64,000 nucleotides of DNA from positions 85,498,001 through 85,562,000 of the forward strand of contig OZ024743.1 of assembly GCA_964016885.1 (NCBI GenBank). Reading direction: 5' to 3'. The position numbers and the translations under genes are program-made. Positions 56,476-57,768 of this stretch are shown piece after piece (the stretch's first letter is position 1; each line of letters begins with the position of its first letter). Origin of the DNA: Eledone cirrhosa. Its lineage: Eukaryota. Below the pieces are notes generated by a model that had not been told where the DNA came from, did not search any database, and was given only the letters and a program-made list of their open reading frames with translations.

Positions 56476-56517
<42 letters not shown>

Positions 56518-56753
56518 ATTTAGAAACACACAGATACATGCGGACACACACATATATACATGAATGCATCCGCACCCAACTGTGAGTTAAGGGTGCCAAC
56601 TTCACCGATGTTGCTCAATGAATGACTGGGACAGACCAATTCAGTTTGAACCAGACTGAACCAGTATCAGAGTTAAAAATACATTATGAAGAGAGAAGAA
56701 ACATTTAGATATAATTAGTAATAAAATGTATCATACCTAAACTGTTCCTAAAT

Positions 56754-56841
56754 TCCTCGACTACGTAGTTTCGTGGCATAAACAAAAACAATATATCAAA
56801 GATATAGAGTCCTTGCGAGGTCTGCCGACTTATCAAGAGGA
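56754..56841 (-). ncRNA. Type I hammerhead ribozyme, variant core, extended helix II
   Basis: tcctc-TTGATAA-gtcggca..(~45 nt)..tgccac-GAAA-ctacgtag-TC^gagga. Confidence 0.75.
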
Positions 56842-57344
56842 TACCTCATTTTACTAGTCTCAAGAACGCGTCTACACGACGTGAGAAAGAATCCCAAAAG
56901 GCGGAGGGGGAGATAGTCACGCGATATAACGGTCGAGAAACAGAGCTAAGCCTCCTATAACCACGAAAAAAATACCACGGAGGCGGAGGGGGCATTCATA
57001 TCGAGGCCGTAGAAGAGGTAGTGAAGAAGGCGAGAAGTATGAGTAATGGAAGCTTTCCGGTTGTCCCCACACTTCAAAGATTGCTCGACCAGAGGGAGTT
57101 ATTAGTACATTTAGAAACACACAGATACATGCGGACACACACATATATACATGAATGCATCCGCACCCAACTGTGAGTTAAGGGTGCCAACTTCACCGAT
57201 GTTGCTCAATGAATGACTGGGACAGACCAATTCAGTTTGAACCAGACTGAACCAGTATCAGAGTTAAAAATACATTATGAAGAGAGAAGAAACATTTAGA
57301 TATAATTAGTAATAAAATGTATCATACCTAAACTGTTCCTAAAT

Positions 57345-57432
57345 TCCTCGACTACGTAGTTTCGTGGCATAAACAAAAACAATATATCAAAGATATAGAG
57401 TCCTTGCGAGGTCTGCCGACTTATCAAGAGGA
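57345..57432 (-). ncRNA. Second copy of the hammerhead ribozyme
   Basis: Same sequence shifted by 591 bp. Confidence 0.75.
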
Positions 57433-57768
57433 TACCTCATTTTACTAGTCTCAAGAACGCGTCTACACGACGTGAGAAAGAATCCCAAAAGGCGGAGGGG
57501 GAGATAGTCACGCGATATAACGGTCGAGAAACAGAGCTAAGCCTCCTATAACCACGAAAAAAATACCACGGAGGCGGAGGGGGCATTCATATCGAGGCCG
57601 TAGAAGAGGTAGTGAAGAAGGCGAGAAGTATGAGTAATGGAAGCTTTCCAGTTGTCCCCACACTTCAAAGATTGCTCGACCAGAGGGAGTTATTAGTACA
57701 TTTAGAAACACACAGATACATGCGGACACACACATATATACATGAATGCATCCGCACCCGTATGTATG

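Follow-up and report, generated by a model that had tools for sequence, protein, structure and literature searches.

The window analyzed here, a stretch of 64,000 nucleotides from Eledone cirrhosa (contig OZ024743.1, positions 85,498,001 to 85,562,000), contains a nearly perfect tandem repeat of a 591-bp unit embedded in (TA)n, and the question raised by this locus is what kind of element the repeat represents and how its copies are made. The window repeat represents a non-coding mobile element present in thousands of recent copies. We consider it probable that this retroelement, which lies in TA repeats and has two fixed 3' ends, is copied from a 591-nt RNA circle by a Neptune-type Penelope enzyme.

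The unit, its boundaries and its predicted ribozyme

Period-591 identity extends across 56512-57759 with a single mismatch (57059 versus 57650) and amounts to 2.11 copies, that is, the two near-identical units and 66-bp third start described in an earlier note on this DNA, with TA-rich arrays on the 3' side (55863..56513) and the 5' side (57760..58301). The whole insertion (56512..57759, minus strand) is one arm. Monomer numbering starts at the base after the predicted cut, which places the 591-nt cut-to-cut monomer at 56759..57349 (minus strand), the 5' truncation at monomer position 182 (57759) and the 3' end at monomer 247 (56512). The left boundary of the window copy is a fixed priming site and the right boundary is a 5' truncation; this is the main feature of the locus and was absent from the earlier note. 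The priming site used, S2 (monomer 240-247; 56512..56519, minus strand), forms the 3' end of the insertion and adjoins (TA)n. Another priming site, S1 (monomer 72-80; 56679..56687, second copy 57270-57278, minus strand), is unused in the window copy. The "tail" between S1 and S2 (56512..56678, minus strand) is 164-167 nt long and contains predicted hairpins.

The unit has no credible open reading frame, as already stated in the earlier note: read around the 591-nt circle, ATG-started frames reach 75 aa at most and stop-free frames 86 aa, and a 69-aa antisense frame had no Pfam match. No RT or GIY-YIG reading frame was found in the unit and no mapped array continues into one as part of the unit; the unit is not an autonomous EN+ Penelope-like element. 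Two GC-box-like words per unit (56900-56910 and 56982-56992, plus strand), kept in an older subfamily, are by their sequence a possible internal promoter upstream of the hammerhead. Elsewhere in the window there are an intronless 14-3-3 reading frame (21717-22508, minus strand; Pfam E 6e-104), a 374-aa frame placed back to back with it (22604-23728, plus strand), fragmented LTR-retrotransposon-like pol frames (37751-41323, minus strand; RT, RNase H and integrase-like, assigned by eye) and many LINE RT fragments, two of which, 95% identical, flank the 591-bp insertion.

On the minus strand each unit contains helix I TCCTC/GAGGA, the core TTGATAA (UUGAUAA) with U3-A8 replacing C3-G8, a 57-nt helix II domain closed by G10.1-C11.1 and followed by GAA, and a helix III made of the 10-nt palindrome ACTACGTAGT (A15.1 to U16.1) followed by C17; written as it occurs in each unit, the palindrome serving as helix III is ACUACGUAGU. 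These parts form two identical predicted type I hammerheads, an upstream one at 57345..57432 (minus strand, predicted cut 57350/57349) and a downstream one at 56754..56841 (minus strand, predicted cut 56759/56758), at the positions given in the earlier note. Judged by sequence, the hammerhead appears complete in every head-to-tail unit. An Rfam scan of 54000-60000 at E<=5 returned no hammerhead, only microsatellite-driven miRNA noise. In its 5-bp helix I and U3-A8 core the motif resembles the minimal Penelope variants. The U3-A8 variant has been described in Schistosoma Penelope-like elements (PMC4209133), and minimal hammerhead models are also admitted for retrozymes (10.64898/2026.07.22.740005). 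Relatives with a short helix II and the same helix III gave only 5 matches, all of them deletion or junction products of the 591-bp family. A hammerhead descriptor scan of both strands of two loci (L150 and L214) gave matches in the sense of each arm only.

The predicted fold of the circular monomer has a z score of -6.6 and that of the antisense -1.1 (40 dinucleotide shuffles each). Relative to the minimum, the hammerhead fold costs 1.8 kcal/mol when the context is short, rising to 5 to 8 kcal/mol with more downstream sequence, because a predicted hairpin at monomer 1-72 (57278..57349, minus strand) captures the 3' strand of helix I in what would be a ribozyme-off fold. We infer from these computed energies that the RNA could cut co-transcriptionally and then pass into an off state, and a weak ribozyme would fit them equally well. 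The palindrome duplex is computed at -12.9 kcal/mol, and the monomer hairpin has no stable fold. Compared with the majority sequence of the older subfamily (585-nt unit, about 80% identical to the young 591-nt unit), the young unit has changes in 47 of 235 downstream columns, in 9 of the 44 columns of inner helix II and in none of the 35 hammerhead columns, the last having been partly preselected by the search motifs, which included the 3' half of the core and only part of its 5' half. The covariation check on helices I-III suggested in the earlier note was carried out: 0 of 14 pairs change on both sides, and the helices are nearly invariant, so this result is uninformative. In the downstream hairpins 3 of 101 pairs show a two-sided change between the two related subfamilies, all in the tail. 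For comparison, 8 of 9 Xenopus retrozyme dimers gave no cleavage in vitro.

Copy number and insertion ends

The genome-wide count called for in the earlier note gave 7,634 matches to an exact 19-nt core, in dispersed copies, and 0 for the reversed control. A similarity search of the 3.0-Gb genome gave at least 191 matches at the 40 candidates scored out of 1,005, and the best 150 unit matches listed were 98-100% identical. The first 100 core matches correspond to about 48 loci and, extrapolated from these, the family would comprise about 3,700 insertions. A search of a viral collection gave a single match, an unrelated chance 19-mer. The copies have distinct flanks and locus-specific haplotypes, which disposes of the concern that the duplication is an assembly artefact, and the unit is also present in contigs of independent sequencing runs. 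None of the 24 run entries listed for it is an RNA data set, and seven runs were examined. Runs X2, X3, X6 and X10 contain host RTE and Neptune repeats together with the unit and are therefore silent on expression or horizontal transfer; the unit search of run X22 gave low-complexity matches only.

We mapped 87 loci, 40 picked by similarity and 47 by position on contig C1. The latter belong to the approximately 48 loci among the first 100 core matches, the remaining one being in the similarity set. One locus (L194; C1:19618700-19625800) holds a whole two-armed insertion duplicated 2,554 bp apart with identical breakpoints, which is a later segmental duplication and was counted once. On the 3' side the arms terminate at S1 (about 80 nt past the predicted cut) or at S2 (244-253), while the 5' ends are scattered, and 126 of 135 3' ends adjoin TA-rich DNA. 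Two arms joined head to head were found in 48 of the 87 loci: 43 pair S1 with S2, none pairs like with like and 5 have an odd end. If each arm chose its site independently, 43 mixed pairs out of 43 would have a probability of 0.5^43. One-armed loci end at S1 in 18 cases, at S2 in 20 and elsewhere in 1, and S1 is the 3' end of about half of the arms outside the window copy. The S1+S2 rule is also kept in the older subfamily, in 7 of 7 loci with both ends read among 30 fetched, 3 others having an unresolved second arm.

In 11 of 86 loci each of the two arms is longer than 800 nt. In L1 twin priming two target ends prime on one RNA and produce an inverted insertion, as here; unlike in L1, the arms of the 591-bp family overlap in sequence, may each contain several units and start from two priming sites that are internal and fixed. 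Of 251 junctions at the cut site, 249 are exact, and the cut shows no excess of 5' truncations, with 7 of 135 in the 28-nt detection bin where about 6.4 are expected. Together these favor a ligated circle over a polymerase jumping from end to end. At L185 (4400-4480) a 12-nt piece of the unit is repeated head to tail about seven times at the arm junction, which looks like RT slippage at the joint. Judged from its ends, one at a fixed internal site and the other raggedly truncated, the element does not have an LTR-type architecture. The anatomy of the family agrees with what is described for Penelope, a one-ended tail and an inverted truncated copy (PMC8557442), combined with two internal RT starts (PMC11167929).

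Haplotypes of the arms and a candidate helper

If the two arms of an insertion were copied independently, their alleles would agree in 791 of the 999 diagnostic site comparisons; they agree in 987. The arms are fully concordant in 38 of 43 loci, and mixed alleles within arms make up 26 of 2,424 multi-unit observations. We then compared individual units in the 46 of 86 loci where a site is present at least three times. Alleles found in more than one locus are either fixed in all units (51 of 62) or single (11 of 62) and never intermediate; among locus-private alleles 64 are single, 9 fixed in all units and 5 intermediate. The prediction in the earlier note of an exact 591-nt monomer follows from the two predicted cut sites, and a monomer template is backed by these variants fixed in all units.

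At L185 the five full units examined all have the same 9 changes, of which 7 are A-to-G. Across the assembly the AA-to-GG mark of this locus was counted 7 times, always in L185 and on both arms (4 + 3), and a triple A-to-G mark of L181 occurs twice in the assembly, both times within the L181 insertion. On the ribozyme strand, rare alleles fixed across units (n=30) include 13 A-to-G and 5 T-to-C changes, and single-unit alleles (n=98) include 5 and 19, respectively; the bias has p 0.004, with independence overstated because nine of the 13 come from two loci. The T-to-C lean of the single-unit alleles is as expected of RT errors placing G opposite template U and is weak after allowing for base composition. 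Several of the changed L185 sites are predicted to be unpaired. RNA editing is abundant in cephalopods, and the simplest reading of the L185 and L181 marks is that one A-to-I-edited RNA was copied several times into each arm; as a counterpoint, a source locus with the L185 haplotype could be absent from the assembly. As far as sequence can tell, the haplotypes point to a template that is single, likely circular and RNA-edited. Four private alleles (one in L040, two in L063 and one in L067) are each common to just one unit per opposite arm, for the most part without mirror register. This shows that there is some exchange between the arms; the pattern perhaps reflects gene conversion or collapsed haplotypes.

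A GIY-YIG search with 50 fetched loci identified several Penelope-like families with a C-terminal endonuclease, most of the sampled ones having a cysteine motif before GIY-YIG, as reported for Neptune/Nematis (PMC8557442). The helper of the 591-bp unit is likely of Neptune type. The most likely candidate is the family NepA (L195), an assignment we hold with somewhat better than even confidence because NepA shares with the unit the hammerhead variant, the TA target and the two-end rule and forms two direct hybrids with it. NepA contains a U3-A8 hammerhead with a palindromic helix III, has 11,848 exact genome matches and ends in (TA)n at 75-78 and 139-143 nt after its predicted cut; its second end reads TTTCTAATATA, compared with TTTCTAAATATA in older unit copies. 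Among 17 inverted NepA pairs read by eye, 12 have one of each end and 5 are odd or complex, one of the latter being a like-with-like pair with 3.5 kb of other sequence in between. The family is young: among the best 150 matches, 36, counting the locus of the query itself, show 100% identity over 200 aa. NepA frames overlap at L289 (1897-5360, plus strand) and also at L286 and L290, giving 409 aa and a 775-aa RT-EN, and a T TTT TTA heptamer in the overlap is by its sequence a candidate -1 frameshift site; L195 itself is a NepA with a longer fused frame. Many NepA insertions (L220-L249) are tiny inverted pairs.

The hybrid search used two gapped patterns and gave 6 distinct loci, of which 2 are direct head-to-head joins, unit S1 to the NepA second end in L292 and unit S2 to the NepA second end in L295; the remaining four are neighbors at or across TA runs. 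Both joins start at one and the same NepA base, which is preceded by a TATA-like word about 30 nt away and followed after about 70 nt by the cut. This base is a candidate transcription start and, lying upstream of the cut, suggests copying of uncleaved RNA. Another locus, L037, joins the unit to a different Penelope family, and what looks like a hybrid could arise when an element inserts next to an older copy. Comparison of the unit with the Penelope families of the 50 GIY-YIG loci and one window family showed no sequence homology, the score lying within the range of shuffles. The absence of homology, the small number of hybrids, the S2+S2 pairing of L295, the L037 join and the 5 misfits among 17 NepA pairs count against the helper model. 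The proposal in the earlier note of mobilization by a Penelope-type RT gains support from the insertion anatomy, from co-resident Neptune-type elements with the same ends and from the two hybrids.

Several other candidates were set aside. The window contains the 3' part of a Neptune-type Penelope element (50716-52690, plus strand) with a GIY-YIG end, a long C-rich 3' region, a minimal hammerhead near 52563-52590 and an end about 95 nt after the cut, in (TA)n; a first look gave 25,824 genome candidates for this family. It is a less likely helper, having no homology to the unit and looking older, with copies at most 96% identical in amino acids. At L150 and L214 a unit lies beside a GIY-YIG frame as an ordinary insertion in the TA-rich 3' region of another family, and L067, L158, L187, L258, L266, L291, L293 and L297 are neighbors across or at TA runs and were left out of the hybrid count.

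Proposed mechanism, alternatives and significance

The mechanism we propose would begin with minus-strand transcription of a locus having two hammerheads. Co-transcriptional cuts, perhaps within a dimer formed through helix III, would release a monomer that is then ligated (PMC7229834, PMC4209133), and the hairpin at monomer 1-72 is predicted to switch the ribozyme off. The GIY-YIG domain of the enzyme would nick both strands of (TA)n, by analogy with the enzymology in PMC11167929, and the two DNA 3' ends would prime at S1 (about 80) and S2 (244-247), one each, at the ends observed. Each RT would roll round the same circle and stop at random, after which the two cDNAs would join head to head or a single arm would survive as in the window, the two anatomies observed. 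For a more specific version, in which a dimeric Neptune-type RT holds one ADAR-edited circle at two fixed sites, priming each from one (TA)n strand and rolling on both, we regard the chances as evenly balanced. With the anole element of PMC11167929, uncleaved RNA is the main substrate, cleavage is dispensable and start sites are alike on both strands; these in vitro results and those from Xenopus, the marginal fold energy and the lack of helix covariation count against the circle model.

The strongest alternatives keep the RNA linear. The cleaved monomer could be held together by helix I while RT jumps from its 5' to its 3' end, or two monomers could be joined through helix III with one RNA per arm. 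Either would account for haplotypes fixed across units, the stable palindrome duplex and the lack of a stable monomer hairpin speak for pairing, and the hybrids show that two RNAs can meet in a single insertion. The 249 exact junctions out of 251 and the absence of a truncation pile-up speak against jumping, however, and the private A-to-G set on both arms of L185 is hard to obtain from two separately edited molecules, so we judge this reading unlikely. We think it somewhat less likely still that the template is an uncleaved linear multimer from a source array, with a marginal ribozyme and arrays later homogenized by gene conversion. The anole element provides an in vitro precedent (PMC11167929), the hammerhead fold is unfavorable in context, NepA arms run through their own hammerhead and there are signs of exchange between arms; but no locus has a shared allele at an intermediate level, 9 private alleles are present in every unit of their locus, the L185 and L181 haplotypes are confined to their own insertions, and the ribozyme columns are conserved while the flanks have diverged.

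A viroid-like RNA replicon, multiplying from RNA to RNA and integrating only occasionally, is very improbable. The predicted circle is highly structured and plant retrozymes are reported to replicate as RNA, but the antisense fold is unremarkable, hammerheads occur only in the sense of each arm in the two loci scanned, DNA copies explain the spread and the lone viral-collection match is a chance 19-mer. Nothing points to RNA-to-RNA replication, and the label of RNA replicon used in the earlier note is without support. A local tandem duplication, a satellite or an assembly artefact, as a near-perfect local repeat inside a microsatellite might suggest, has the smallest probability of all; it is already refuted by the thousands of dispersed copies with fixed ends and distinct flanks, and the unit's presence in independent runs argues against an artefact.

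A circle copied by a Neptune-type enzyme stays our preferred reading. By its sequence the unit would qualify as an animal non-LTR retrozyme, since it consists of tandem hammerhead units, is non-coding and is dispersed in high copy with signs of retrotransposition. In its two fixed internal 3' ends, one-sided tail, inverted 5'-truncated arm and AT-rich target it works like a Penelope-mobilized passenger. With known animal retrozymes (PMC7229834, 10.64898/2026.07.22.740005) it shares non-coding tandem units with one type I hammerhead each, GC below 50%, thousands of copies, co-existing Penelope-like elements and a self-paired predicted circle. It differs from them in its hammerhead, which looks more like the Penelope type than the canonical one, with U3-A8, a short helix I and a long, bulged helix II, and in its arrays, which arise as insertions of one or two arms in (TA)n and end at two fixed sites. 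In Xenopus 24 of 57 retrozyme families match transposable elements, nearly all Penelope-like, whereas no homology was found between the unit and the pLTRs of the families sampled. Its length exceeds the 150-450 bp of PMC7229834, but it is not unusually large, as the earlier note had supposed, given vertebrate consensus lengths of 51-972 bp and a fish mean of 650 (10.64898/2026.07.22.740005).

In the Poseidon element PAc of Anolis (PMC11167929), too, RT starts at two internal sites beyond the hammerhead, which delimit a tail; both target strands are extended, the target is AT-rich and a dimer is predicted. Its tail is 30-40 nt compared with 164-167 nt here; the start sites here have a few bases of TA homology, reported absent in PAc; S1 and S2 are strictly divided between arms here, whereas PAc shows no strand difference in vitro; and the unit, unlike PAc, has no ORF. 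The EN+ Penelope-like elements, Neptune/Nematis and Naiad (PMC8557442, PMC4209133), also form tandem or inverted 5'-truncated insertions with a tail at one end, and a (TA)n preference is stated for Naiad as well. A palindromic helix III is a further shared feature, the U3-A8 variant is shared with Schistosoma Cercyon (same sources), and PMC4209133 proposed a circular template for Penelope-like elements. Unlike these elements the unit encodes neither RT nor endonuclease and is a passenger.

Earlier work, reasoning from co-occurrence and similarity to pLTRs, proposed that animal retrozymes move through circular RNA with the help of Penelope enzymes (PMC7229834, 10.64898/2026.07.22.740005), and the authors of the latter describe the life-cycle evidence as limited. 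How tandem and inverted Penelope-like copies with a one-sided tail are built is called open in PMC8557442. Our literature search, which left most subscription journals and supplements outside, found nothing on cephalopod retrozymes or an arm-pairing rule. The animal non-LTR retrozyme class is already known; the two-site pairing, the single-haplotype, edited-looking arms and the hybrids with a young helper go beyond the accessible text of the papers cited. The 591-bp family provides countable genomic footprints both for retrozyme movement and for the structure of Penelope-like copies, namely the strict sharing of two sites between arms, arms of a single haplotype, an editing-like barcode on both arms and a named young candidate helper, and these make the circle/Penelope model directly testable in vitro. 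If the more specific version with a dimeric RT on one edited circle is true, its rule of one RNA and two sites would account for the tandem and inverted arrangement of Penelope-like insertions generally, as well as for their tail on one side, and RNA edits would be written into the germ-line genome.
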